46,867 nucleotides of DNA. Source: an uncultured Gammaproteobacteria bacterium (lineage in GTDB: Bacteria; Patescibacteriota; Patescibacteriia; 2-12-FULL-60-25). Below the pieces are notes generated by a model. It saw only the letters and a list, made by a program, of their open reading frames with translations, made no database searches and had not been told where the DNA came from. This document shows, piece after piece, positions 4,914-46,867 of the stretch. The stretch is taken from positions 1 to 46,867 of the forward strand of contig CAZXFK010000001.1 of NCBI GenBank assembly GCA_964640115.1, written 5' to 3'. A program made the translations under genes and the position numbers. Within the stretch, counting starts at the first letter, position 1, and each line of letters opens with the position of its first letter.

Positions 4914-5017
4914 CCACTCGCTTTATTATTTATTATTTTTTATTTGTTATTTAATGAAAGTACCACTCGCTTTATTATTTATAACTTTATTATTTGTTAT
5001 TTATGATTTGTTATTTA
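4914..5017 (+). repeat. 49-bp direct repeat (CCACTCGCTTTATTATTT...) filled with TTATTTG/TTATTTA heptamers (family D)
   Basis: CCACTCGCTTTATTATTTAT occurs at 4914 and 4963, followed each time by 7-bp periodic AT-rich units. Confidence 0.8.
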
Positions 5018-5247: not shown

Positions 5248-5931
5248 TTGTTCTATGCTTTCAATATTATGACACCGGAACTCGATTTATTATTACTCGT
5301 CAATAAACCCGCCGACATGACTTCGCATGATGTTGTAAATATCATCCGCAAAAAATACAATATACGCCGAGTTGGGCACGGAGGCACTTTGGATCCATTC
5401 GCAACGGGATTGCTTATAATCGGCATCGGCAAAGCGACTAAAAAACTCACAGACATAGTCGGTCTCGACAAAACCTACGAAGCAACAGCCATACTTGGTG
5501 CCACCTCTGACACTTACGATCTAACGGGGGAGATCGTCAAACGTCAAACGTCTAACGTCCCAAGTCAGGAGGAAATCGAAAAAGTGATGGAAAATTTCCG
5601 CGGTACCATCGAACAAAAAGCACCGGCTTATTCAGCCAAAAAAGTCGGCGGAAAAAAACTCTATGCACTCGCACGTGCCGGCGAAAATGTCGAACACCTG
5701 CGTCCAACCAAAAAAGTGGATATTACTGAACTTGTTATCACAGATTACAACTTCCCAACCTTAAAATTCCGTGTCACCTGCTCTTCCGGAACTTACATCC
5801 GTTCACTTGCCAATGACATCGGCGAAGCTTTGAGCTGCGGCGCTTATCTCTCGGAACTGAAACGAACCCGCATCGGACAATACAAACTCGAAGATGGTCT
5901 GAATTTTGACCAAGTCCCACGAAGCTTTTAG
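5248..5931 (+). CDS. truB: tRNA pseudouridine(55) synthase TruB
   Basis: VGHGGTLDPFATGLL contains the catalytic Asp motif. The start may be the Met at 5269. Confidence 0.88.
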   Translation: MFYAFNIMTPELDLLLLVNKPADMTSHDVVNIIRKKYNIRRVGHGGTLDPFATGLLIIGIGKATKKLTDIVGLDKTYEATAILGATSDTYDLTGEIVKRQTSNVPSQEEIEKVMENFRGTIEQKAPAYSAKKVGGKKLYALARAGENVEHLRPTKKVDITELVITDYNFPTLKFRVTCSSGTYIRSLANDIGEALSCGAYLSELKRTRIGQYKLEDGLNFDQVPRSF

Positions 5932-7492: not shown

Positions 7493-9025
7493 ATGTACGC
7501 ATTTATAGCGTTGGCATTTGGTCTTGCGGCCGGATACGGCATAGCCGCATTCGTCTATCAGCAAAAAGCCAAATCAGCCAAGCTTTCCATTGAGGAAGCA
7601 CAAGAAAAAGCGCAAAAAATTCTTAAAGAAGCCGAAACCAAAGAGGCTGATGTCATGGTTCGCGCCAAAGACAAAGCCATCAAAATTTTGGAAGATGCCC
7701 GTGTAGAAGAAAAAAAAGCTTTAGAAGATCTGAAAAAACAACAAAAAGAACTGAACGAACGCGAAAATTCCGTATCCAAAAAAATGCTGGATATCGACGA
7801 CCTGAAAAAATCTTTGGATGTCAAAGCCTCGGATTTGGAAAGTAATCTCGCCGCGGTTGAAGTCATGAAATTGGAAGAGAGCAAAAAATTAGAAGAAGTG
7901 GCCGGCTTAACTCAAGAACAAGCTGTGGAACGCATGCTCTCTTTGGTTGAAGAACAACATCAAGATACTTTAATGAGCCGTGTTCGCAAATTGGAACAAT
8001 TGGAGTCCGACGAAATCGAACGCAAAGCTCGCAACATTTTGGGCGTTACCATTCAACGCATCGCCGCTTCACATGTTACCGAAACAACAACCACAAATGT
8101 CGAACTTCCCAATGACGAGATGAAAGGCCGTATTATCGGACGTGAAGGCAGAAATATCAAAACAATCGAACAACTTACCGGTTGCGAACTTATCATCGAC
8201 GACACACCCAACATGATCACGGTCGCCGGTTTCTCCCCCATCCGCCGACAAGTGGCCAGCCGTTCGCTCACCAAGCTTATTGCCGATGGACGTATCCACC
8301 CCGGGCGCATCGAAGAAGCTGTGGACGAAGCCAAAAAAGAATTACAGCTTGATATCAAAAAAGCCGGCGAAGACGCCTTGTTTCAACTTGGCATTTCCAT
8401 GGCCGGTATTGATCCCAAGCTTGTGCAAATTTTAGGCCGTCTCAAATACCGCACTTCCTACGGTCAAAATATTCTTCAGCACTCCATCGAGGTTTCGCTT
8501 ATAGCCACAGCCTTGGCCGAAGAACTTGGCGCTGATGTTGCGGTTTGTAAAAAAGGCGGATTATTTCACGATATCGGCAAAGCCGTAGATCACGATTTGC
8601 AGGGAGGCCATCCTGAATTGGGCGTACAAATTCTTAAAAAATTCGGTTTCCCCGAAGAAATCTGGTATCAATCCATCGGTCATCATGAAGATAAACCCAA
8701 AACCTTGGAAGCCGTCATTGTTAAAGCCGCGGATGCCATCAGCGGAGCCCGCCCCGGCGCACGCAAAGATACTTTGGAGCAATACGTTAAACGTTTGGAA
8801 GAATTGGAAAATGTCGCCAAAGGCTTCGAGGGCATCGAAAGAGTTTATGCCATTCAAGCCGGCCGCGAAATCCGCGTGTTCGTAAACCCCATGTCCATCG
8901 ATGATTTCAACGCCACATCTTTGGCCCGCAATATCGCCAAAAAAATCGAGTCCGAACTCAAATACCCCGGCGAAATCAAAGTCACCCTGATCCGCGAAAC
9001 CAGAATCACCGAGTACGCCAGATAA
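7493..9025 (+). CDS. rny: Ribonuclease Y
   Basis: N-terminal transmembrane helix, coiled coil, KH domain (IIGREGRNIKTIE) and HD domain (LFHDIGKA...GHHE). 510 aa. Confidence 0.93.
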   Translation: MYAFIALAFGLAAGYGIAAFVYQQKAKSAKLSIEEAQEKAQKILKEAETKEADVMVRAKDKAIKILEDARVEEKKALEDLKKQQKELNERENSVSKKMLDIDDLKKSLDVKASDLESNLAAVEVMKLEESKKLEEVAGLTQEQAVERMLSLVEEQHQDTLMSRVRKLEQLESDEIERKARNILGVTIQRIAASHVTETTTTNVELPNDEMKGRIIGREGRNIKTIEQLTGCELIIDDTPNMITVAGFSPIRRQVASRSLTKLIADGRIHPGRIEEAVDEAKKELQLDIKKAGEDALFQLGISMAGIDPKLVQILGRLKYRTSYGQNILQHSIEVSLIATALAEELGADVAVCKKGGLFHDIGKAVDHDLQGGHPELGVQILKKFGFPEEIWYQSIGHHEDKPKTLEAVIVKAADAISGARPGARKDTLEQYVKRLEELENVAKGFEGIERVYAIQAGREIRVFVNPMSIDDFNATSLARNIAKKIESELKYPGEIKVTLIRETRITEYAR

Positions 9026-9053
9026 ATCCCCCAATCCCGCCACGGCGGGATAT

Positions 9054-9077
9054 CCCCCTTTTCTAAAGGGGGTTTTT
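9054..9077 (+). terminator. Rho-independent terminator after rny (GC-clamp hairpin family)
   Basis: CCCCCTTT-TCT-AAAGGGGG followed by TTTTT. It is preceded by a second hairpin, ATCCCGCC-AC-GGCGGGAT. Confidence 0.75.
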
Positions 9078-9213
9078 AGTATTTAAGTATTAACTCACTC
9101 TAAATCTCTCTCTTAAAATAAGAGAGAGACTTGTTAACAAAGTTAACTTTAGTTAACTTGGCAATTTGCAGCCCCTCTCTTGCATTAAGAGAGGGGGAAG
9201 GGGGTGAGTTAAT

Positions 9214-9289
9214 CCGTTACACCGTTACGACGTTATAAACGTTACGACATGACGACGTTATTGCCGTTACTCCGTTACAACGTTATACT
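9214..9289 (+). repeat. Degenerate ~8-bp tandem array (CCGTTACN / ACGTTATN), family E
   Basis: ccgttaca ccgttacg acgttata ... ccgttaca acgttata. The array ends 9 nt before the TrmB-like start codon. Confidence 0.8.
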
Positions 9290-10071: not shown

Positions 10072-10094
10072 CTCTCCTACAAGGAGAGTTTTTT
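10072..10094. terminator. Bidirectional terminator between convergent genes
   Basis: CTCTCC-TACAA-GGAGAG followed by TTTTTT. It lies between the TrmB stop codon and the stop codon of the 10094-10891 gene. Confidence 0.7.
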
Positions 10095-10891
10095 CATCCG
10101 AAGATGCCACCTCCGGTACGTCCGAAGATGCCACCACCTTCGAATCCGAAGATGCCACCTCCGGTACGTCCGAAGATGCCACCACCTTCTTGCGTCGCGG
10201 ATGCGTACATGAAGGCTCTGTGACTCTGCTTCATGCCGCCGAACATCGCTTGTGCGAGTCCATCGACGACTTGGTTCGCTGCGCTCGCGATCTCGTTGCC
10301 GAGTTCGCATGCTTCGCGCTTTACAAGCGCGAAAAGGCTTGTTCCAAAAGCAGATTTCTCGGGCTCGCAGATCAACTTGCCGGTTTCGACGTTGAACTCG
10401 AGCTCAATTTGCTCTCGGTGAGGTCGGCGGTAACAGGTGCCGTTCTTGGGGTTCTCGCAATCGGGACCGCAGTTGCATTCGTCGCCGCTTCCTCCGTTGC
10501 TGTCGCTATCATCGTCATCATCTTCGAAGCGGGCAACATCCAAAATCGACCTTCCATTCTTCTCCGCTTCGAATGCGACGGCGAGTACGAAAATAGCGGT
10601 GATGAGGAGTGCAATTCCAAGTACCGTCGCGAATCCTTGAAACTGCAAGGCAGCATTCATCATGAACACCGCACCGCCAAGAAAGACATAGGTGTTTACC
10701 ACCTTTGCATTCCGTCTACGCTTTGCGTATTCCGAGCTCTTCAACAAGCTCGAATCATAGCCCGGGATATTGAAAGCGTAAGCTAATCCAACTCGGCCGC
10801 ACCAAAGGAAGTCCTCGACTGAGTGCAAAAAACAAAAAACTCCGTTTTTCAAAAAACTATTTTCTTCCTTTTCGCTTTTCGATTTTTCCAT
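10094..10891 (-). CDS. Hypothetical GC-rich membrane protein with C-terminal (GGGIFG)x4 tail
   Basis: Two transmembrane helices, an acidic D/S stretch, the Cys cluster CNCGPDCENPKNGTC, and the ending GGGIFGRTGGGIFGFEGGGIFGRTGGGIFG. The stop codon abuts the terminator. The start is uncertain. Confidence 0.45.
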   Translation of the reverse strand: MEKSKSEKEENSFLKNGVFCFLHSVEDFLWCGRVGLAYAFNIPGYDSSLLKSSEYAKRRRNAKVVNTYVFLGGAVFMMNAALQFQGFATVLGIALLITAIFVLAVAFEAEKNGRSILDVARFEDDDDDSDSNGGSGDECNCGPDCENPKNGTCYRRPHREQIELEFNVETGKLICEPEKSAFGTSLFALVKREACELGNEIASAANQVVDGLAQAMFGGMKQSHRAFMYASATQEGGGIFGRTGGGIFGFEGGGIFGRTGGGIFG

Positions 10892-11420: not shown

Positions 11421-11455
11421 CGAAATTCGAAATACGAAATTCGAATTTCGAATCA
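11421..11455 (+). repeat. Heptamer tandem array, family B (CGAAATT-like), 5 units
   Basis: cgaaatt cgaaata cgaaatt cgaattt cgaatca. Confidence 0.85.
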
Positions 11456-11747
11456 TGTCTGATTTCCCCGTCAGTAGCTCCTCACCAATTAAAGCGTCCG
11501 CTTGCGGACCAAAGAGGCGCGAACACGAATAATTGGAACTTGGATGCAAATCCATTTTAAACGATGCAATAAAAAACAAAGATCCGGATTAGCCAATCCG
11601 ATCTCTTGTAGAGTTCGTCATCCGAGGAGAAATGATGAGCTCTACTAGAGAACACACGTAATAAATTAAAAATAATAAATAACAAATAATAAAGGTAAAT
11701 ACATTCGCTCGCTATATTATTAATTGATTTATAAATTAAAACAAAAT

Positions 11748-13871: not shown

Positions 13872-13949
13872 CTCCCCATGCCAAACAACTCAAATTGACG
13901 TTCGACGTTAGACGTTCGACGTTAGACGCTGTTTGTTTGCTACGGGGAG
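13872..13949. repeat. Imperfect inverted repeat enclosing a GACGTTN heptamer array (family C, 13897-13931)
   Basis: CTCCCCATGCCAAACAAC ... GTTTGTTTGCTACGGGGAG flanks gacgttc gacgtta gacgttc gacgtta gacgctg. Confidence 0.75.
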
Positions 13950-14294: not shown

Positions 14295-14329
14295 CTGGTA
14301 ACTAGTGGCTAGTGGCTAGAAGCTAGTGG
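14295..14329 (+). repeat. Heptamer tandem array, family A, 5 units
   Basis: ctggtaa ctagtgg ctagtgg ctagaag ctagtgg, followed by cttaata and then the -35 box. Confidence 0.88.
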
Positions 14330-14337
14330 CTTAATAG

Positions 14338-17746: not shown

Positions 17747-17750
17747 AAAA

Positions 17751-17925
17751 TTGTCTGAACCTTGATTCCCTCCAAAGGCAAGCAGGCGCCTGATTAAATG
17801 ATTCCAAACCGATTTTCAAATTGTATAATTGTTCTTAAAATTTCTTTACATTTGACATTCGACGTTTGACGTTAGACATCAAATAATCAAGTTAATCAAA
17901 TAATCATGCGAATCAAGGTTCAGAC
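17751..17925. mobile_element. MITE-like element, TGTCTGAACCTTGATT family (copy 1)
   Basis: Termini TTGTCTGAACCTTGATTC and GAATCAAGGTTCAGAC are inverted. Inside are a GACNTTN heptamer array (17854-17881) and AATCAAGTTAAT motifs. There is no ORF. The right terminus overlaps the last codons and stop codon of the methyltransferase gene. Confidence 0.6.
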
Positions 17926-18650
17926 TTCTTCCTCACAACCGCAACCAAGTTCCTCCCCCAAAACCTGCCCGTCCATCCTTTACTGTCATAAGCTCCTATT
18001 TTTTCGATTTCCCAATCTTGTTTATCAAAAAGTGACACAAACTCCGGTAAGGTAAATGCATGCACATAACGATTCTTTGGAGTTTTGCCCGCCTTCCAGA
18101 TGTAATGCAAATCGCCTCTATCCCCTCCAATAAATCCGGGGATTCGAAACCATGCATGCTTTATCATGTTCCATGATAAAAACCTTTTGGCCCGCAAATT
18201 CCACACCGACAAAATCATAATCCCCCCGGGTTTTAAGATTCGATGCAATTCTTTAATCGATCTCAGACGTTCCTCATGAGATGGAACGTGATGTAATACG
18301 GCAATACAGGTAACAGCATCCGCAAAATCATCTTGCAAATCCAACTTAGGAAATCCACCATCTACAATCTTCGAGCCCTTGTGTTGCTCTAATCGACTCT
18401 CGGCAAATTCTCTAAGCGAGGCACTGGGCTCTACCCCCACATACTCGACTCCTTGAGGCACAACATCAAGCAACCGCGCATTCCCTGCCCCCACATCAAC
18501 CAAAGTTTGCCCGGGCTTTAAACGGTCCATAAAATCCAACATCAATTCCCACACATGATGCCTTGTGTGACCAAATGCGGTACCCTCGGATTCATAAAAC
18601 TCCGCAACCTCATTTTTAATCTGATCAATTGTTTCTTTTTCCATAATCAC
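17913..18650 (-). CDS. Class I SAM-dependent methyltransferase, Trm9-like
   Basis: SAM motif I is LVDVGAGNARLL. The segment CIAVLHHVPSHEERLRSIKELHRILKPGGIMILSVWN resembles the Trm9/ALKBH8-type signature (AVxHH..s..eR...i.E..R.LkPGG...i.vW). Confidence 0.7.
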   Translation of the reverse strand: MIMEKETIDQIKNEVAEFYESEGTAFGHTRHHVWELMLDFMDRLKPGQTLVDVGAGNARLLDVVPQGVEYVGVEPSASLREFAESRLEQHKGSKIVDGGFPKLDLQDDFADAVTCIAVLHHVPSHEERLRSIKELHRILKPGGIMILSVWNLRAKRFLSWNMIKHAWFRIPGFIGGDRGDLHYIWKAGKTPKNRYVHAFTLPEFVSLFDKQDWEIEKIGAYDSKGWTGRFWGRNLVAVVRKKSEP

Positions 18651-18740
18651 ATCCTACTTTAACCCGCGTCTTTGGGCAATATCAAGCCCTTGATTAAACC
18701 CGCTTTTTCTGTCATGATACACGTCTAGTCGTAACGCAAA

Positions 18741-18896
18741 TTGTCTGAACCACGATTCACTCGATTATAAGATTATCTTGATTATTCATTATATTTCGAA
18801 AGAATATTGCAATAATCCTGTCGTAGATCAAGAGCGCAGTCGAGTTGTTTAATCCTTGCGTGATAATCTTGTTAAGATTGGTTCAAGGTTCAGACA
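18741..18896. mobile_element. MITE-like element, TGTCTGAACC family (copy 2)
   Basis: TTGTCTGAACCACGATT ... CAAGGTTCAGACA inverted termini, about 155 bp, no ORF. It lies in the divergent intergenic region between the methyltransferase and Elp3 genes. Confidence 0.6.
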
Positions 18897-18922
18897 TTTG
18901 CTAGTGACTGATAGCTGAATTT

Positions 18923-21088
18923 ATGTTAATTAAACCTCCGTTGGAAATTGCCAAGACCGTGATAAAGACACTGGCTGATTTGGAATTGCCGACACGGAAG
19001 GATTTGATGATGGTTATACGCAAAACAATTAAAGATTCAAATTACGCTTTCCCAACTTCAATTCAACTTTGGGAGGCTTATCGCGATTTGCAATCTCAAG
19101 GATTTGCCAAAAATGAAAAAATTGAAAAAGTTTTAAAAGTTAAAGATGTGCGTACGGATAGTGGAGTGGCTCCGATAACCGTACTTACCAAACCTTACCC
19201 CTGCCCCGGTAAATGCGTTTATTGCCCCACCGAATACCGCATGCCCAAAAGCTACATCTCCAGCGAACCGGCGGCTGCTCGTGCTCTTAGCCTTGATTTT
19301 GACCCTTACGAGCAAGTTAAACAAAGAGTCCAAGCTTTGGAGCGTAACGGACATACGGCCAACAAAATCGAACTCATTGTGAAAGGCGGCACTTGGTCCG
19401 CTTACCCCAAAGATTACCGCGAGTGGTTCATAACCCGTTGCTTCCAAGCCGCCAACGACCTCGGTAACTCCCCCTCGTCAGAGGGGAGTTCAAGCCCTCT
19501 TGTCAAAGAGGGACATCCAGCGAATGCTGGATTGGAAGATTCCCAATCCATCAACGAAACCTCCGCTTACCGCATCATCGGCCTTACCATTGAAACTCGT
19601 CCCGACCACATCACTCCGGATGAAATCATCCACCTCCGCAAACTCGGAGTTACGAGGGTTGAACTCGGCCTGCAGATCATCAACGATAGAGTTTTAGAAC
19701 TCACTGGACGCGGAACAACCGTCGCCGACGCCGAACTTGCAATCACATTACTTAAAAACGCAGCCTTTAAAGTCGATGTACACATTCTCCCCGGCCAACC
19801 CGGCGCTTCTCGCGAGGATGATTTGGAATCTTTCAAAACTTTATTCGATGATCCCCGCTTTCGCCCCGACATGATCAAACTCTACCCTTGTGTTGTACTC
19901 CCCAACTCCGAATTGTACGAAATAACCAAACGCGGTGATTTCAAACCGCTGGAAGGAGAAGATCTACGCGAGTTACTTATAGAGATGCAAGCAATGATCC
20001 CTTATTATTGCAGGGTCTCGCGCCTTATTCGCGATTTCCCCACGGCCGACATTTCTCACGGCAATAAACAAACCAACTTACGCGAATCAATCGAATCCGA
20101 GATGAACAAGCGCGGTATCAAATGCAAATGCCTGCGTTGCCGTGAAGTCGGCCACGTTCCGGGCGATCATACGAACGACAAAACTCAACTCTTCGAAGAA
20201 CGCTACGAAAACGCCGGCGGAACCGAGGTATTCCTCTCGATCGAAAACCAAGATCGCAGTGCGGTTTTTGGTTTTTGCAGACTAAGACTGCCGAAAATCC
20301 CCCAATCTGACGATTCTCGTCAAATATCCCCCTTTGACAAGGGGGCGGGTTGCAAGGTTGATGAGTTAACCATACATGGCGAAACCCTTCCCTATAACAT
20401 ATTACTGAAAGAAAATGCAAATAAGCTGCGCAACAATCAAACACTTGCCGAAAAAAAACTTTGGTACGATGTTTTATCCAAAGATCAAACCGGATTTCGT
20501 TTTTTAAGACAGAAGCCTATTGATTCATTTATCGCGGATTTCTACTGCTCAAAACTCATGCTTATCATCGAGGTTGATGGTAAAATTCATGAAAAGCAAA
20601 AAGAATACGACGAATCTAGAACATATTGTTTAGAAGATTTAGGCCTAAAAATCATCCGTTACACAAATGAAGAAATTCTTCACAACCTCCCAGATGTAAA
20701 AAAAGATTTAGATCATCATATCCAAATAAGATTAAACGAAATTAAACAAGCAGCCGCCAAAAAAGCATCCATCGAAGCGCCCCCTCGTCAAAGGGGGATA
20801 ATTGCACAAAGTGCGATTTGGGGGATTTACGAAGCTTTCCCCATTCTCAAAACCTCCGCCCAAATCCGCGAGCTCCACACTTATGGGACAGCTTTAAACA
20901 TCAACCAACAAAATCAAGAAGCTTCACAACACAAAGGCTATGGCAGAACTTTGATGGCGAGAGCGGAAGAAATCGCTCAAAACGAAGGCTACGAACACAT
21001 GGCCGTCATCTCCGGCATAGGAGTTCGCGAATATTACAAAAACCTCGGATATCACGAACAAGATACTTACATGGTCAAAGAATTGTAA
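18923..21088 (+). CDS. Elp3-like radical-SAM/GNAT tRNA wobble-uridine modification enzyme carrying in-frame insertions
   Basis: Radical-SAM CPGKCVYCP, the GLTIETRPD and VELGLQ motifs, and a C-terminal GNAT region (IRELHTYG...QHKGYGRTLMARAEEIA...VISGIGVREYYKNLGY). At 721 aa it is clearly longer than I expect for a bacterial or archaeal Elp3, which I recall as roughly 450-550 aa. Confidence 0.82.
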   Translation: MLIKPPLEIAKTVIKTLADLELPTRKDLMMVIRKTIKDSNYAFPTSIQLWEAYRDLQSQGFAKNEKIEKVLKVKDVRTDSGVAPITVLTKPYPCPGKCVYCPTEYRMPKSYISSEPAAARALSLDFDPYEQVKQRVQALERNGHTANKIELIVKGGTWSAYPKDYREWFITRCFQAANDLGNSPSSEGSSSPLVKEGHPANAGLEDSQSINETSAYRIIGLTIETRPDHITPDEIIHLRKLGVTRVELGLQIINDRVLELTGRGTTVADAELAITLLKNAAFKVDVHILPGQPGASREDDLESFKTLFDDPRFRPDMIKLYPCVVLPNSELYEITKRGDFKPLEGEDLRELLIEMQAMIPYYCRVSRLIRDFPTADISHGNKQTNLRESIESEMNKRGIKCKCLRCREVGHVPGDHTNDKTQLFEERYENAGGTEVFLSIENQDRSAVFGFCRLRLPKIPQSDDSRQISPFDKGAGCKVDELTIHGETLPYNILLKENANKLRNNQTLAEKKLWYDVLSKDQTGFRFLRQKPIDSFIADFYCSKLMLIIEVDGKIHEKQKEYDESRTYCLEDLGLKIIRYTNEEILHNLPDVKKDLDHHIQIRLNEIKQAAAKKASIEAPPRQRGIIAQSAIWGIYEAFPILKTSAQIRELHTYGTALNINQQNQEASQHKGYGRTLMARAEEIAQNEGYEHMAVISGIGVREYYKNLGYHEQDTYMVKEL
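20387..20740 (+). mobile_element. DUF559 (Vsr-like endonuclease fold) module embedded in frame within Elp3
   Basis: LPYNILLKENANKLRNNQTLAEKKLWYDVL...FRFLRQKPIDSFIADFYCSKLMLIIEVDGKIHE...RTYCLEDLGLKIIRYTNEEILHN matches the full-length DUF559 pattern. It is flanked by the hairpins CCCCCTTTGACAAGGGGG (20328-20345) and CCCCCTCGTCAAAGGGGG (20780-20797). Confidence 0.75.
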
Positions 21089-21111
21089 AACAGCGCTCAT
21101 GCGCTGTTTTT
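21087..21111. terminator. Bidirectional terminator between the convergent Elp3 and GGDEF genes
   Basis: AAAACAGCGC-TCAT-GCGCTGTTTT. Confidence 0.75.
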
Positions 21112-21113
21112 GA

Positions 21114-23492
21114 TTATGCCAATTCTTTTCTCACTTTTAATATTTTATCTCTATCTTGTTCCGCATCTCTTAATCTTTGCTTCAAAGACAAAATTACATG
21201 CTCTTTGCTATCAGACTCGGATTCAGCTTTACGCAGATCTTGCAACAATCTGGCAATTTCCATTTCCTGCATCTCTTTGACCAAATCATTTCTTAGCAAA
21301 ATAAACTCCAACTCTTGTTGTTTTAATTTATCCTTACCTTTATCTTTAAGTTTCTTGGCTATAAACTCCATCATCTGCCTGTTTATTTCAGCCAAAGAAA
21401 CATTTTTGGATTTATACTCATTAGCCAGCTCCTCGATCAATCTGCGTCCTTCCAGTCCAAATATGGATTTGGATGAATATGAATACAAAACTTCCAAATC
21501 CGCGCCTTCTTGATGATCGGGTTTTGTTCTCATGATTTCTCTGTTAAACAAAAGCACAAATCTGTTAACCGTTTTATCACCTTCAACCAACGCATCCGCG
21601 GTATTGAGCAATTTATCCGGATCAGCCATTTCGGGATCCGAATTTTTTCCGTATGAGGATAATCCGAAATTAAATTGCAAAAATTCATCTTTATATCTCG
21701 TTCGGGCTCCGGAGTGTGGAGGAATACTTTCAACATCGTTTAATGCCGAAAAACGTATATCGTTTATTATTTGATGAACCGTTTCCAGATCATCCGAATT
21801 AACTGTTACAACAAATTCGTCCCCGCCTATTCGATAGGCTTGAGTTCCCAAATATTCGTATTTGCGAGCGATATTATCTAAAACTCTTCCCGCCGCCTTA
21901 ATTGCAGCGTCTCCGGTTTGTTTTCCGCCTTCTTTGTCAAAATATTTTAAAAACGCCATATCAATCGAAACAACGGAAACGGGCTGTGAATCTGCCAAAC
22001 GCGCACCCATTTCTTGAAACAACATCCCTCGATTTTTTAATCCTGTTAAAGTATCTTGTTTAAGCTTATTCACTTCCAACCGCAATTCAGCCAATTCTTT
22101 TTTCTTGCGAAACACTTGATTTTTTGGATCAACAGCTTCCGCTTCTTTTGCCAAGTCTAACTCATCTTCCAACTTTTTTGCCGATAATTCACCTCGCGAC
22201 TGACCCAGGCCATCTAAACGCTTTTTAAAATCATCAACTTTATTTATATCTTCTTTTGTTACTTCCTTTTTACGAGATTTCGAATCCATTTTACTTAAAT
22301 CTTCAACATTAACAACCATTCCTTCTCTCGCTGCTCTTTCGTGCAATTCGTCTATCAATTTTTTTTGCAAATCAATTTCCATCTTAACCGTCATTTCATG
22401 AGAATCTTGGAAATTCCTTATAGCTTCATCACGCGAAACCGTAAACTTAGTTTGATCCCATTGCAACTGATTATAATCCGCTCCCAAAACACCGGCACCT
22501 CTTTCTTGTAAGGCTTTTACAAATTCCGAATAATCAAAAGCTTCCGTTCTACCCGCTTCGGCAAACAATAATCCCAAAGATTTTTTTAAATATTTTTCGT
22601 ATAAATCATTCGGATTCAGTTCATCGGGATTATTTATTATATTCACCATTCTATCCAACCTTGTTTTTATTTTTACAAATTCTCCCAAAACAAACATCCT
22701 TTCCCGCAACAAAGTAATCAATAAATTTTTATCTTTACTTGATTGGTCATTCTCATCAACAGTTTCTTTATCCGCAGTCTCAAAATCAGTCAATTCTTTC
22801 AATAACTCGAAACTATTATTCAATGTGATGGCATGAGCCGCCAAAGGAACGCTTTCCACTTTATGATCAGTTTCAATTTGTATAAGTCCATTCAAACTTT
22901 CAACGATATTGTCAACAATTTCCTTATCAACATCTTTTACTATCACGGCAAAATCATTACCGCTCATTCGATACACCTCAAACATTTGCGGTATTTTTTC
23001 CTCAAGATTTTCATCCTGTAAATGCCGTCTTATATTACCTGCGAATTGCTGTTGAATTTTATCATAGGCCAAACCCAAACCCACATCTCCCAGCCTGTGC
23101 TCGCCTATTGAATTCAATCTGTCCAATTCTCCCATATTAACCAAAATCAAATGATTTTTGTGCAGACTTTCAGAATCTTCAACAAAAGGTTTATCGGATT
23201 CATTTCTGCCAAGACCCATTTCATCCAACAAATCACCCAATTCCAATCCGAAACGCTGACCTTTTTTAGCTCCCGTAATATCTCTTTCCCAAATATAAAA
23301 TTCCAACTCTTGCTTGGCAATTTCCAGATCCAAACTCAATACTTCTCGTTCTTCGTGCAATAACTTTTCCTCACCCGACTTTTCATCATCTGCGAGTAAC
23401 TTATTTTGCAACTCTGCAACTTTTCTATTCTTAACTGCCGTTTCATTTATATATTGCTCGGTTTTCAACCGGCGCATTTCTTGAGGAATCAT
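21114..23492 (-). CDS. Coiled-coil protein with tandem GGDEF-type domains (N-terminal degenerate SGNDF, C-terminal intact GGDEF)
   Basis: The second domain reads LTGLKNRGMLFQEM...VSIDMAFLKYFDKEGGKQTGDAAIKAAG...YRIGGDEFVV, which is canonical. The first reads LVNMGELDRLNSIGEHRLGDVGL...YRMSGNDFAVIV. No RxxD I-site is seen and there is no transmembrane segment. Confidence 0.7.
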   Translation of the reverse strand: MIPQEMRRLKTEQYINETAVKNRKVAELQNKLLADDEKSGEEKLLHEEREVLSLDLEIAKQELEFYIWERDITGAKKGQRFGLELGDLLDEMGLGRNESDKPFVEDSESLHKNHLILVNMGELDRLNSIGEHRLGDVGLGLAYDKIQQQFAGNIRRHLQDENLEEKIPQMFEVYRMSGNDFAVIVKDVDKEIVDNIVESLNGLIQIETDHKVESVPLAAHAITLNNSFELLKELTDFETADKETVDENDQSSKDKNLLITLLRERMFVLGEFVKIKTRLDRMVNIINNPDELNPNDLYEKYLKKSLGLLFAEAGRTEAFDYSEFVKALQERGAGVLGADYNQLQWDQTKFTVSRDEAIRNFQDSHEMTVKMEIDLQKKLIDELHERAAREGMVVNVEDLSKMDSKSRKKEVTKEDINKVDDFKKRLDGLGQSRGELSAKKLEDELDLAKEAEAVDPKNQVFRKKKELAELRLEVNKLKQDTLTGLKNRGMLFQEMGARLADSQPVSVVSIDMAFLKYFDKEGGKQTGDAAIKAAGRVLDNIARKYEYLGTQAYRIGGDEFVVTVNSDDLETVHQIINDIRFSALNDVESIPPHSGARTRYKDEFLQFNFGLSSYGKNSDPEMADPDKLLNTADALVEGDKTVNRFVLLFNREIMRTKPDHQEGADLEVLYSYSSKSIFGLEGRRLIEELANEYKSKNVSLAEINRQMMEFIAKKLKDKGKDKLKQQELEFILLRNDLVKEMQEMEIARLLQDLRKAESESDSKEHVILSLKQRLRDAEQDRDKILKVRKELA

Positions 23493-27085: not shown

Positions 27086-27162
27086 GGATTGGGATTAAGC
27101 TGGTGACTGGTGGCTGGTGGCTGGTGGCTGGTGGCTGGTAGCTGGTAGCTCGTAGCTAGTGG
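27086..27162 (+). repeat. Heptamer tandem array, family A, 11 units
   Basis: ggattgg gattaag ctggtga ctggtgg x4 ctggtag x2 ctcgtag ctagtgg, followed by cttaaaaattt and the polX ATG. Confidence 0.92.
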
Positions 27163-27173
27163 CTTAAAAATTT

Positions 27174-33163: not shown

Positions 33164-33274
33164 ATCTCCTAACCCTCAAAGCCTCATAGCTTCTGCGAAG
33201 TGGGTTAGCAAAGTTGATCGGCGAAGTGGATTAGCTTTATTATTTATTATTTATTATTTGTTGCTTTATTATTT

Positions 33275-39190: not shown

Positions 39191-39194
39191 AAAA

Positions 39195-39411
39195 TTGTCT
39201 GAACCTTGATTATCAAACCGATTACCAACCTAATTAACTTGATTACTAATTGTCTGAACCTTGATTTAAAAACCGATTACCAACCTAATTAACTTGATTA
39301 CTAAAGGTAGAGATAATCATATACATATAGTAATCAAGTTAATATGAGCGTGAATATGAGCGGTAATCCCCCTTCGCCTTTGGCTACGAGGGACACGGTC
39401 AAGGTTCAGAT
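39195..39411. mobile_element. MITE-like element, TGTCTGAACCTTGATT family (copy 3, with 55-bp internal tandem duplication of the left end)
   Basis: TTGTCTGAACCTTGATT...ATTAACTTGATTACTAA occurs at 39195 and 39250. The right terminus is CAAGGTTCAGATA at 39400-39412. No ORF. Confidence 0.6.
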
Positions 39412-39416
39412 AATAG

Positions 39417-39458
39417 CTAGAAGCTAGAAGCTAGAAGCTGGTAGCTGGTAGCTCGTGG
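39417..39458 (+). repeat. Heptamer tandem array, family A, 6 units
   Basis: ctagaag x3 ctggtag x2 ctcgtgg, followed by ctgttaa. It ends 7 nt from the ruvA stop codon. Confidence 0.9.
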
Positions 39459-44878: not shown

Positions 44879-45130
44879 GTTAAGCGGTTAATTTGGCACA
44901 ACCTCCTAAATCCCTGTCCGCAACACATTGCTTGCGAGGCAGGCGGGTTCTTATCAGAAGAATTTATCCATTTAGTCTTCATGGCAAAGCTCAGCTTAGC
45001 TGATGAATTTAGGGTTGCGCTAAAACAACCAGTAACACCCCCTTTAATAAAGGGGGACATTTTTGTCGCACGGTAATTATTTGAACTGCGACAAAAATTG
45101 GGGGAATCCTCCGAAACAACGTATTCAAAA

Positions 45131-46648: not shown

Positions 46649-46867
46649 ACCACGATTCGCATGATTTCCGCTCACAATTATCATGATTATTTTATTGTCT
46701 GAACCTTGATTATCCCGAACTAGTGGAAAGTTCATCAAGTCTAAAGTTTATCAAGAGAAGCTTAGGTTACTCTTGATGAACTTGTTACTTTTAACTTGAT
46801 GAACTCATCTAGTAATCAAGACACGTCGTTCGCGAACGACAGTGTCAAGTTAATCAAGGTTCAGACG
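46641..46867. mobile_element. MITE-like element(s), TGTCTGAACC family (copy 4, runs to the window edge)
   Basis: TGTCTTGAACCACGATT at 46641 contains the rpiB TGA stop codon. TTGTCTGAACCTTGATTA is at 46695, and the inverted terminus AATCAAGGTTCAGAC is at 46852-46866. Confidence 0.55.

Follow-up and report, generated by a model that had tools for sequence, protein, structure and literature searches.

A hairpin-bounded DUF559 nuclease cassette carried in frame within a patescibacterial Elp3 gene

The EDxHD / Vsr-fold homing endonucleases are represented by I-Bth0305I (Dassa 2009; Taylor 2011; PMC3239194), a dimer that cuts a pseudo-palindromic site (PMC3239194). It lies in a group I intron and has relatives in (split) inteins, and DUF559 has been grouped with the Vsr and EDxHD nucleases (PMC3424549). 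The element described here is an insert of 534 bp that encodes a DUF559 nuclease domain and is carried in frame by the Elp3 gene of a stretch of 46,867 nt of contig CAZXFK010000001.1 (the whole of this stretch is termed the window). The insert forms a separate unit, with repeats at its boundaries and a nuclease gene between them. Genomes that are otherwise nearly identical differ in its presence, it recombines laterally, several non-homologous sites are occupied, and its decay leaves hairpin scars that stay in frame. The insert is probably a mobile, selfish, read-through cassette that resides in a short surface loop of the lysine acetyltransferase (KAT) domain of Elp3. The proteins that bear it are currently annotated plainly as ‘Elp3’ or ‘TatD family hydrolase’, and such annotation misses the element.

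The cassette has in common with I-Bth0305I the nuclease superfamily and fold, residence at a fixed site of a conserved housekeeping gene, and a patchy distribution in which its presence is sporadic and close relatives carry an intact empty allele. The pseudo-palindromic target of I-Bth0305I also fits the palindromic repeats of the cassette. Unlike I-Bth0305I, the Elp3 cassette has no group I intron, intein or other splicing element, it comprises the ~120-aa core only with no extra N-terminal DNA-binding region, and its gene is bounded by hairpin terminal inverted repeats. The nearest precedent found in the literature is the ShiLan domain or ‘hidden HNH’ in phage DNA methylase genes (Arsenault, Gosselin & Gogarten 2025, PMC11855218). 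There the insertion is likewise open in the host frame with no detectable intron or intein features, behaves in a homing-like manner and is predicted to loop out from the host protein (PMC11855218). However, the ShiLan HNH is encoded out of frame and has a GTG start and a TAA stop of its own, whereas DUF559 is in the host frame and can be made only as part of Elp3. The HNH belongs to a different nuclease family and a phage host, and the abstract on it mentions no hairpin terminal repeats, while the cassette lies on a bacterial chromosome (PMC11855218).

The REP/REPIN-RAYT and IS200/IS605-type systems resemble the cassette in having a small nuclease gene between inverted GC-rich hairpin repeats, which are also dispersed as solo copies and are conserved in structure with covarying stems. 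The enzyme in REP/REPIN-RAYT is an HUH (Y1) transposase, and REP/REPIN copies are dispersed in the hundreds, whereas the cassette encodes a Vsr-fold PD-(D/E)xK nuclease and has in-frame copies inside open reading frames (ORFs); moreover, solo copies at one of its sites, in TatD, are decay products of full cassettes, unlike the solo copies of REP/REPIN-RAYT. Terminal inverted repeats and copies at non-homologous sites (two Elp3 sites, TatD, an intergenic position at 9024 and other hosts) are features of terminal-inverted-repeat transposons and miniature inverted-repeat transposable elements (MITEs). Pfam detected no transposase of a known family, DUF559 being the only domain, and PADLOC and PHROGs gave weak generic nuclease matches only.

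Rickettsia palindromic elements (RPEs), in-frame MITE-like insertions and mitochondrial GC clusters or double-hairpin elements are short palindromic repeats tolerated in coding genes. The likeness to RPEs, drawn by description only, is that the frame is kept and tolerated peptide segments are added on protein surfaces. We know of no autonomous nuclease gene associated with RPEs, and the short in-frame hairpin segments found here, unlike RPEs, trace to a nuclease-bearing parent cassette. Inteins with homing endonucleases are also in-frame selfish nuclease insertions in conserved enzymes, co-translated and passing through cycles of gain, decay and loss. Unlike inteins, the cassette lacks both a Hint domain and the residues of a splice junction, has no space for either, and evidently stays in the mature protein. 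Full-text literature searches, the coverage of which is incomplete, returned DUF559 only as Vsr-like or EDxHD-related, and no hairpin-flanked or in-frame DUF559 elements.

The element within the Elp3 gene

The host gene and the parts of the element are as follows.

18923 to 21088, + strand: host gene Elp3 (radical-SAM plus KAT/GNAT tRNA U34 cm5-modification enzyme), 721 aa including the element; from the ORF, hidden Markov model and PDB matches
20295 to 20828, + strand: whole inserted element, 534 bp or 178 codons, in frame with Elp3; from the shared termini, the terminal inverted repeats and the related allele L001, which is without 480 bp here
20295 to 20345, + strand: left terminal inverted repeat, made up of leader AAATCCCCCAAT (20295-20306), hairpin B and hairpin A; encodes KIPQSDDSRQISPFDKG
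20305 to 20325, + strand: left hairpin B, ATCTGACGATTCTCGTCAAAT, with one mismatch
20328 to 20345, + strand: left hairpin A, CCCCCTTTGACAAGGGGG
20375 to 20770, + strand: DUF559 / Vsr-fold (PD-(D/E)xK) nuclease domain, aa ~485-616; Pfam PF04480 matches aa 496-597, nt 20408-20713
20780 to 20828, + strand: right terminal inverted repeat, made up of hairpin A, hairpin B and trailer TTTGGGGGATTT (20817-20828); encodes PPRQRGIIAQSAIWGI
20780 to 20797, + strand: right hairpin A, CCCCCTCGTCAAAGGGGG
20800 to 20818, + strand: right hairpin B, AATTGCACAAAGTGCGATT, with one mismatch
Within the 721-aa ORF: linker-spanning peptide stretches FCRLRLPKIPQSDD..., ...SPFDKGAGCK... and ...PPRQRGIIAQS...

The ORF (18923-21088, + strand) contains no stop across its 721 aa in the ORF listing. 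It is matched by the Elp3 model TIGR01211 (538.5 bits against a cutoff of 350, E=1.5e-161), the match being broken into two stretches by the insert, and by the Pfam domains Radical_SAM, Radical_SAM_C and a C-terminal GNAT piece (Acetyltransf_1). A PDB search matched the solved Elp3 structures 6IAZ and 5L7J, with a best E of 6e-113. Residues 68-460 and 647-721 align with residues 22-405 and 416-492 of Methanocaldococcus infernus Elp3 (6IAZ), and ~186 residues of the window protein stand in place of a ~10-residue loop of the KAT domain. The Fe-S cysteines C94, C98 and C101 are invariant in 68 homologues including the window, as are the residues of the KAT acetyl-CoA motif (R649 E650 H652 ... Q669 H670 G672 G674). 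E650 and H652 correspond to E386 and H388 of DmcElp3 (PMC6367351), and the cassette lies in the KAT domain 8-10 residues upstream of this catalytic region. The acetyl-CoA blocking loop was also weighed as the location and ruled out, since it (DmcElp3 390-406, PMC6367351) follows E386/H388 and corresponds to aa ~654-668 of the window protein, while the cassette is situated one loop earlier, at aa 458-646. The homologues are annotated as Patescibacteria / Candidatus Uhrbacteria. Elp3 has genes for a SAM-dependent methyltransferase and a GGDEF protein as its neighbours, with synteny conserved in all relatives.

The element has neither a start codon nor a stop codon of its own. Its termini are AAATCCCCCAAT at 20295-20306 (+) and AAATCCCCCAAA at 20817-20828 (-); read in the same orientation, the left end is AAAATCCCCCAATCTGACGATTCTCGTCAAATATCCCCCTTTGACAAGGGGGCGG and the reverse complement of the right end is GTAAATCCCCCAAATCGCACTTTGTGCAATTATCCCCCTTTGACGAGGGGGCGC. 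Each end begins with the terminus AAATCCCCCAA(T/A) and continues with hairpin B, the sequence of which is variable, two bases, and then the conserved hairpin A (CCCCCTTTGAC[A/G]AGGGGG). There are 6 near-matches to the terminus in the window (0.81 expected), and the pattern CCCC-N9-GGGG occurs 7 times against 0.29 expected from shuffles. Within the ~50-nt terminal inverted repeats, 20321-20347 and 20778-20804 make up an inverted repeat of 27 nt that is 93 % complementary. On folding as single-stranded DNA both ends give the two predicted hairpins, at -11.7 kcal/mol (z=-3.8) for the left and -9.7 kcal/mol (z=-2.2) for the right.

The nuclease domain matches PF04480 over profile positions 4-105 of 109 with E=1.8e-31 (108.6 bits against a gathering threshold of 20.6), and NF007294 with E=1.3e-18. 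Searching the PDB with the DUF559 part gave the DUF559 structure 3HRL at 5e-16. All 16 of the residues that are invariant in a 47-sequence alignment of the subfamily (E27 W31 R46 Q47 D56 F57 Y58 C59 E67 D69 G70 H73 D80 R83 R96 N99 in alignment A4) are kept in the window copy. The domain was modelled with AlphaFold2 at a predicted local distance difference test (pLDDT) score of 86, and Foldseek aligned the model with 3HRL (TM 0.88, E=4e-7) and with the homing endonuclease I-Bth0305I (3R3P, TM 0.80); the match to Vsr (1VSR) was weak. The nearest relatives of the inserted domain are free-standing DUF559 proteins of 105-211 aa, typically ~125 aa, with 40-60 % identity, and many of their called ORFs have a hairpin-type peptide, for example PPAPFGKG or SPSLDKGRVGEG, at one end. 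The window nuclease is 62 % identical to the free-standing protein P0121, close relatives of which (P0130 and P0138) are named Leptospiraceae, but it is only 48-56 % identical to the nucleases at the same Elp3 site in P0007, P0010 and P0011, where the hosts are 66-74 % identical. These comparisons use pairwise identities and not topology, as the branches of the neighbour-joining tree of DUF559 are long and poorly resolved.

A preliminary description of the window, made from its letters, had reported an Elp3-like ORF open for 721 aa with a full-length DUF559 domain inside it, inserted at a short loop between FGFCRLRLPKIP and AQIRELHTYG. The TIGR01211 and PF04480 matches bear out the ORF and the domain, and the Elp3 alignment identifies the loop as the ~10-residue loop of 6IAZ. 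The two GC-rich hairpins that it placed at 20328 and 20780 are found there as the inner parts of the terminal inverted repeats, and its remark that DUF559 proteins are normally small free-standing ORFs agrees with the nature of the nearest relatives.

The structure of the 721-aa protein was predicted with AlphaFold2 from 68 Elp3 sequences (alignment A3). An alignment of Elp3 together with free-standing DUF559 proteins (A2) was discarded, as the short proteins were misaligned with 0 % of residues in the insert columns. The model (pLDDT 80.6, pTM 0.72) has a confident Elp3 core, and the insert is predicted to form a separate alpha/beta domain. Scores below 50 are confined to aa 184-199, 461-496 and 617-623, which are hairpin-encoded segments, and aa 657-662 in the blocking loop; the segment at aa 184-199 is a relic in the radical-SAM domain described below.

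Codon comparison of eight filled alleles gave ratios of non-synonymous to synonymous substitution (dN/dS) of 0.04-0.11 for host sequence to either side of the insert and 0.05-0.12 for the DUF559 core, the latter at dS 0.7-1.5. In the hairpin-encoded linkers dN/dS is 0.4-2.5 with an unusually low dS of 0.3-0.7, values that point to constraint on the DNA rather than the peptide. The reading frame is kept in every allele, at least 10 of them diverged, despite many independent indels in the linkers. These comparisons show a nuclease that appears to be translated with the host under purifying selection. The preliminary description had offered as its alternative a newly disrupted gene that is in frame by chance, which is rejected by the low dN/dS of host and core and the retention of the frame.

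A given hairpin can be read in two frames, as TCC CCC TTT GAC AAG GGG (SPFDKG) in the window and as CTC CCT TTG ACA AGG GAG (LPLTRE) in L011 and L012, while the right hairpin encodes PPRQRG, PSCQRG or SPLTKG in different alleles. Stem variants are compensatory, for example CCCCCT..AGGGGG and CCCTCT..AGAGGG. In an alignment of 18 repeat units, drawn from both Elp3 sites and from the intergenic copy, 96.4 % of cells are paired in the two-hairpin structure, compared with 76.3 % in column shuffles (0/500 reach the observed value) and 48-58 % in a slid-partner control. Compensatory double changes occur at 9/9 pairs of hairpin B, and hairpin A has a C-G to U-A swap. Variants of hairpin B recur across sites and genomes; thus ATCCCGCC...GGCGGGAT is found at 9024 in the window, at the radical-SAM site of L002, at the left end in L006 and at the right end in L007. 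The reading in different frames, the covariation and the dN/dS of the linkers show the ends of the element to be nucleic-acid elements under selection at the DNA level.

Filled, empty and decayed alleles

The DUF559 insert is present at the KAT site in nine of the best-matching Elp3 homologues (the window, P0001-P0005, P0007, P0010 and P0011). Close relatives are free of it, namely P0006 (95-96 % identical), P0009 and P0008, and most Elp3 proteins of Patescibacteria are without the DUF559 domain. The DNA of the empty allele L001 is 98.2 % identical to that of the filled allele L002 upstream of the insert and 99.7 % identical downstream, and a difference of exactly 480 bp (160 codons) separates the two; the right-hand repeat is retained in L001 (...CTGCCACAG|CCCCCTCGTCAAAGGGGGATAATTGCACAAAGTGCGATTTGGGGG...). 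A neighbour-joining tree of the host sequence only intersperses filled with empty genes and nests L001 within filled alleles; it has four filled/empty sister pairs (P0001/P0006, P0003/P0009, P0010/P0031 and P0011/P0027). The architecture of Elp3 with cassette occurs in at least 12 independent assemblies (ENA, NCBI, JGI and Logan) with conserved synteny.

The differences between L001, L002 and L005 are clustered in blocks, so that these alleles are recombinants (mosaics) of one another. L002 and L005 are 98.5 % identical in the host and 99-100 % identical in the left half of the cassette, and only 71.8 % identical in its right half, where synonymous sites are saturated. Conversely, the window and L002 are 93 % identical in the host and 99-100 % identical in the right half of the cassette, and L002 and L007 are 83 % identical in the host and 95-98 % identical in the left part. 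These identities show a lateral exchange of cassette halves that outpaces the divergence of the host gene.

The element is also found elsewhere. In the distant Elp3 of L018 the cassette occupies the same KAT loop, with hairpins that are exactly reverse-complementary. In L094 and L095 (L095 1907-4021) the cassette splits the radical-SAM domain of Elp3, and the KAT loop contains a solo double hairpin only. The site in the radical-SAM domain is that at which the window carries a relic, the parts of which are as follows.

19466 to 19543, + strand: relic in a loop of the radical-SAM domain, in frame (NSPSSEGSSSPLVKEGHPANAGLED), with three hairpins and a trailer; fold -22 kcal/mol, z=-5.4
19466 to 19490: relic hairpin AACTCCCCCTCGTCAGAGGGGAGTT
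19495 to 19512: relic hairpin CCCTCTTGTCAAAGAGGG
19515 to 19532: relic hairpin ATCCAGCGAATGCTGGAT

In the structure alignment the relic segment is missing from archaeal Elp3, and it is predicted to be disordered.

Other host genes were obtained from scans of genome and metagenome loci. A search with the 173-aa insert alone returned free-standing DUF559 proteins only and no Elp3 fusions, the word-index prefilter being one that may miss fusions. In L019 (2120-3418) a TatD hydrolase contains the cassette in frame, in the same metagenome-assembled genome (MAG) as the Elp3 P0003. The partial ORF that contains the L100 cassette is 378 aa long, and Pfam detected no further domain in it. L111 (530-4174) encodes a Type ISP-like restriction-modification protein of 1215 aa (N6_Mtase, Eco57I, Type_ISP_C) in which DUF559 stands between the methylase and specificity regions and is followed by GC-rich hairpins; this arrangement could reflect insertion of a cassette or a true fusion to a nuclease domain.

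The TatD site exhibits successive stages in related Patescibacteria (P0241-P0257): naive, filled, internally deleted and scar. Naive alleles read GLDYHYFSENPNL..., and P0241 and P0242 are filled. In P0249/L157 (105-1049) an internal deletion has spared the left hairpin together with ~10 codons from the start of DUF559, as well as a C-terminal fragment and a pair of right hairpins. The scar of P0250/L158 (301-1179) is a single hybrid hairpin, with a 5' arm like the left repeat and a loop and 3' arm like the right. Such a hybrid is what the C-runs of the two flanking hairpins would be expected to leave on recombining or slipping. L158 and the filled Elp3 of L014 are from the same MAG. In-frame scars of 6-25 codons are still translated in many alleles. 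Empty alleles with a solo repeat were considered as naive target sites; this was downgraded, given that the solo hairpins of TatD arise by decay of the cassette and that L001 is nested among filled alleles.

Hairpins are also associated with DUF559 genes outside Elp3. GTDB species representatives supplied 77 non-Elp3 DUF559 loci; in 63 of these a GC-rich hairpin with a perfect stem of >=6 bp lies within 200 nt of the gene, and in 34 there is one on both sides. The loci are from Bacteroidota, Clostridia, Gammaproteobacteria, Chloroflexota, Spirochaetota, Cyanobacteria and Patescibacteria. The density of hairpins is 4.27/kb near the DUF559 gene compared with 0.78/kb elsewhere in the same loci; hairpins in which the C-rich arm comes first reach 3.30/kb compared with 0.16/kb (~20-fold). 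The hairpin on the left is typically the reverse complement of that on the right, and this extends to the loop (L062, L108, L129 and others). Flanking by hairpins is a general property of this DUF559 subfamily.

Behaviour and origin of the element

On the reading considered probable, that of a mobile, selfish cassette, the ribosome would read straight through the element, which has no start, stop, intron or intein and leaves the frame open. The hairpin DNA would be expressed as disordered linkers, the nuclease would fold separately and Elp3 would stay functional. By analogy with I-Bth0305I (PMC3239194) the nuclease may recognise and cut the palindromic/hairpin repeat or an uninterrupted site, and recombinational repair from a filled copy would spread the cassette, as in homing; such cutting and repair would account for the mosaic alleles and the re-occupied sites. 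The mosaic alleles, and segments of the cassette that are more alike than the host flanks, give this course indirect support. The element could be lost through deletion of its interior, or through slippage that involves the C-runs of the hairpins on either side, leaving short in-frame hairpin scars such as that in the radical-SAM loop of the window. Freedom from stops, together with flanks that are flexible linkers, may allow survival in the essential genes of compact candidate phyla radiation (CPR) genomes. The preliminary description had likewise suggested a mobile nuclease cassette in a surface loop, for which the insert-free allele, the interleaved host tree and the loop position provide support. 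On the comparisons that it proposed, the predicted structure has a confident Elp3 core and a separate DUF559 domain, with low-confidence linkers at the hairpin-encoded segments; an insert-free allele exists (L001, which keeps a scar); and hairpin-flanked DUF559 cassettes occur at a second Elp3 site, in TatD, in other genes and in many phyla. The covarying terminal repeats, the second Elp3 site and other genes, the hairpins throughout the subfamily and the scar in the insert-free allele go beyond that description, as do the in-frame hairpins at 19466-19532 and the solo copy at 9024-9072.

A number of observations weigh against a mobile cassette. No target-site duplication is present, the flanks TGCCG | ... 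| ACGAA having no common direct repeat, and no simple recombination between the repeats would yield the empty Elp3 allele (CTGCC-ACAG-CCCCCTCG) cleanly. Given the absent duplication and the imperfect scar junction, there is no clean fit to allelic homing, to transposition or to a REP/RAYT-like process. The mechanism of movement is conjectural, with putative nuclease activity, cleavage site and target. The invariant Glu is lost in P0005 (IIGVDG) and P0007 (IKIDE), so activity is not universal among the copies. The strong purifying selection on the fused nuclease domain is also expected of a domesticated domain that benefits the host. The 47-kb window has few copies of the repeat only, all of the sequences are from metagenome assemblies, and the 721-aa product is known as a sequence and not as a protein. 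A homing-type mechanism specifically is put forward tentatively.

The likeness to REP/RAYT systems suggests an alternative in which a trans-acting DUF559 protein would make, spread or maintain dispersed hairpins, with the ~50-nt double hairpin as the mobile unit and the Elp3 copy as such a gene inside an ORF. Solo units away from any DUF559 gene (9024-9072 and the radical-SAM loop) would be explained in this way, as would the variants of hairpin B that are common to different sites and genomes, as for a dispersing repeat family, and the hairpins around DUF559 genes in many phyla. Conservation of hairpin B in structure over sequence is also like the recognition of REPs by RAYT/TnpA on single-stranded DNA. 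However, intermediates with DUF559 fragments mark the solo hairpins of TatD as remnants of full cassettes, and solo units then need no mobility of their own; the DUF559 gene, too, moves between locations and is polymorphic, and the enzyme is a Vsr-fold nuclease and not an HUH transposase. This alternative is regarded as unlikely. Co-option of DUF559 by a clade of Elp3, for example as a nucleic-acid-binding or tRNA-handling module of benefit to the host, is rated lower still, as improbable. The dN/dS of the domain equals that of the host, the domain is kept across lineages with dS >1, the 16 family-invariant residues are all intact in the window copy, and the insertion is adjacent to the catalytic E650/H652 region, all as might be expected of a domesticated fusion. 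But close relatives have lost the domain from genes that are open and full-length, most Patescibacteria have Elp3 without it, and some copies have lost invariant residues. Furthermore, the same cassette and repeats are found in the unrelated TatD and at another Elp3 site, halves of the cassette have been laterally swapped, and terminal inverted repeats have no role in a plain fusion.

The hairpin clusters might alternatively define excision at the level of RNA or protein, giving a mature Elp3 without the insert. The conserved, covarying border hairpins would form in the mRNA too, and CPR bacteria have unusual intervening sequences in their rRNA genes. Yet Rfam gave zero matches at E<=1 across 18500-21500, including the group I and group II intron models, and there was no Pfam match to a Hint/intein domain in the 721-aa ORF, in keeping with the earlier statement that intein splice motifs are absent. 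Nor are there intein blocks; the ~50 non-nuclease residues of the insert are too few for a Hint fold, the junction residues (K/E/Q-I-P ... and ...G-I/T-I/S) are not conserved and include no conserved nucleophiles, and the sole HN (ILHN-L) lies inside DUF559 and is not conserved. An intron would have no need of a frame kept through many indels or of selection that acts on the nuclease as a protein read in the host frame, and the 6-25-codon scars are still translated. An unrecognised splicing element is accordingly very unlikely. Least credible of all, to the point of being negligible, is a pseudogene or assembly chimera that is open by chance. The window is presumably a metagenome assembly like all the related sequences, and the gene is known from DNA; against this stand the recurrence of the architecture, with its synteny, in the independent assemblies, and the purifying selection on both host and nuclease parts.

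The finding falls with the known homing-endonuclease-like selfish elements, and there is a substantial chance that hairpin-ended DUF559 cassettes are a new class of mobile element. It is possible, though it is offered with reserve, that hairpin-ended DUF559 genes in general are an unrecognised, phylum-spanning mobile class, in which a minimal Vsr-fold nuclease of ~120 aa would mobilise its cassette via structure-specific recognition of the hairpin ends; in CPR bacteria a read-through lifestyle would colonise the loops of essential enzymes, and decay would yield hairpin-encoded peptide insertions. DUF559 (PF04480), a very large family of ‘unknown function’, would thereby gain a concrete and testable role as the nuclease of a hairpin-ended selfish element. 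In addition to the intron and the intein, translation through a tolerant loop would be a third means by which an endonuclease gene can reside in an essential gene. Cassette scars, visible at the TatD and Elp3 sites, are a possible origin of the short peptide insertions encoded by GC-rich hairpins in CPR proteins. The covarying double hairpin and compact nuclease provide a simple system for structure-specific recognition of DNA and, if the enzyme is site-specific, possibly a small nuclease scaffold with a programmable target.

Further repeats in the window

One further copy of the repeat, and one possible copy, lie between genes.

9024 to 9072, + strand: solo terminal repeat unit AAATCCCCCAAT-CCCGCCACGGCGGG-ATAT-CCCCCTTTTCTAAAGGGGG, intergenic; fold -15.4 kcal/mol, z=-3.6
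45038 to 45056, + strand: lone A-type hairpin CCCCCTTTAATAAAGGGGG, intergenic

The copy at 9024-9072 begins inside the stop codon of RNase Y (ORF end 9025) and is followed by TTTTT, and it may double as a terminator. A function as mere terminators was rejected for the intragenic copies, which have no T-run, lie inside ORFs and are inverted on the two sides of the nuclease. The hairpin at 45038-45056 is possibly a further member of the family. A tblastn search found no second DUF559 in the window. Two more perfect hairpins, TCTCTCTCTTAAAATAAGAGAGAGA and CCCCTCTCTTGCATTAAGAGAGGGG, are located at 9105-9196, downstream of the solo repeat, and the region between RNase Y and the trmB-like gene is a cluster of hairpin elements.

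Beside Elp3, the SAM-methyltransferase gene (17913-18650, - strand) is bracketed by a 44-nt inverted repeat (17882-17925 / 18743-18786) that is 82 % complementary. A motif of ~25 nt, AAATTGTCTGAACCTTGATT, occurs five times (17748-17772, 18738-18762, 39192-39304 and 46692-46716), including a 55-bp tandem duplication. Many intergenic regions contain arrays of short tandem heptamers (GTGGCTA/GCTGGTG, TTCGTGG, ATTTCGA, GACGTTA and TTTATTA) and of the 8-mer CGTTACGA (9215-9287). Arrays of this type are found at 1434-1474, 1801-1830, 2053-2118, 4922-5017, 5535-5559, 9215-9287, 11421-11452, 11659-11693, 13897-13928, 14302-14331, 17845-17877, 27099-27164, 33236-33274 and 39414-39453, and some of the heptamers reappear as inverted partners far away in the window. 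Lastly, a perfect 48-bp tandem duplication with a 24-bp sub-repeat (10096-10189) lies in the ORF 10094-10891 (-), where it encodes GGGIFG-type repeats in the C-terminal ~31 aa of a hypothetical protein.

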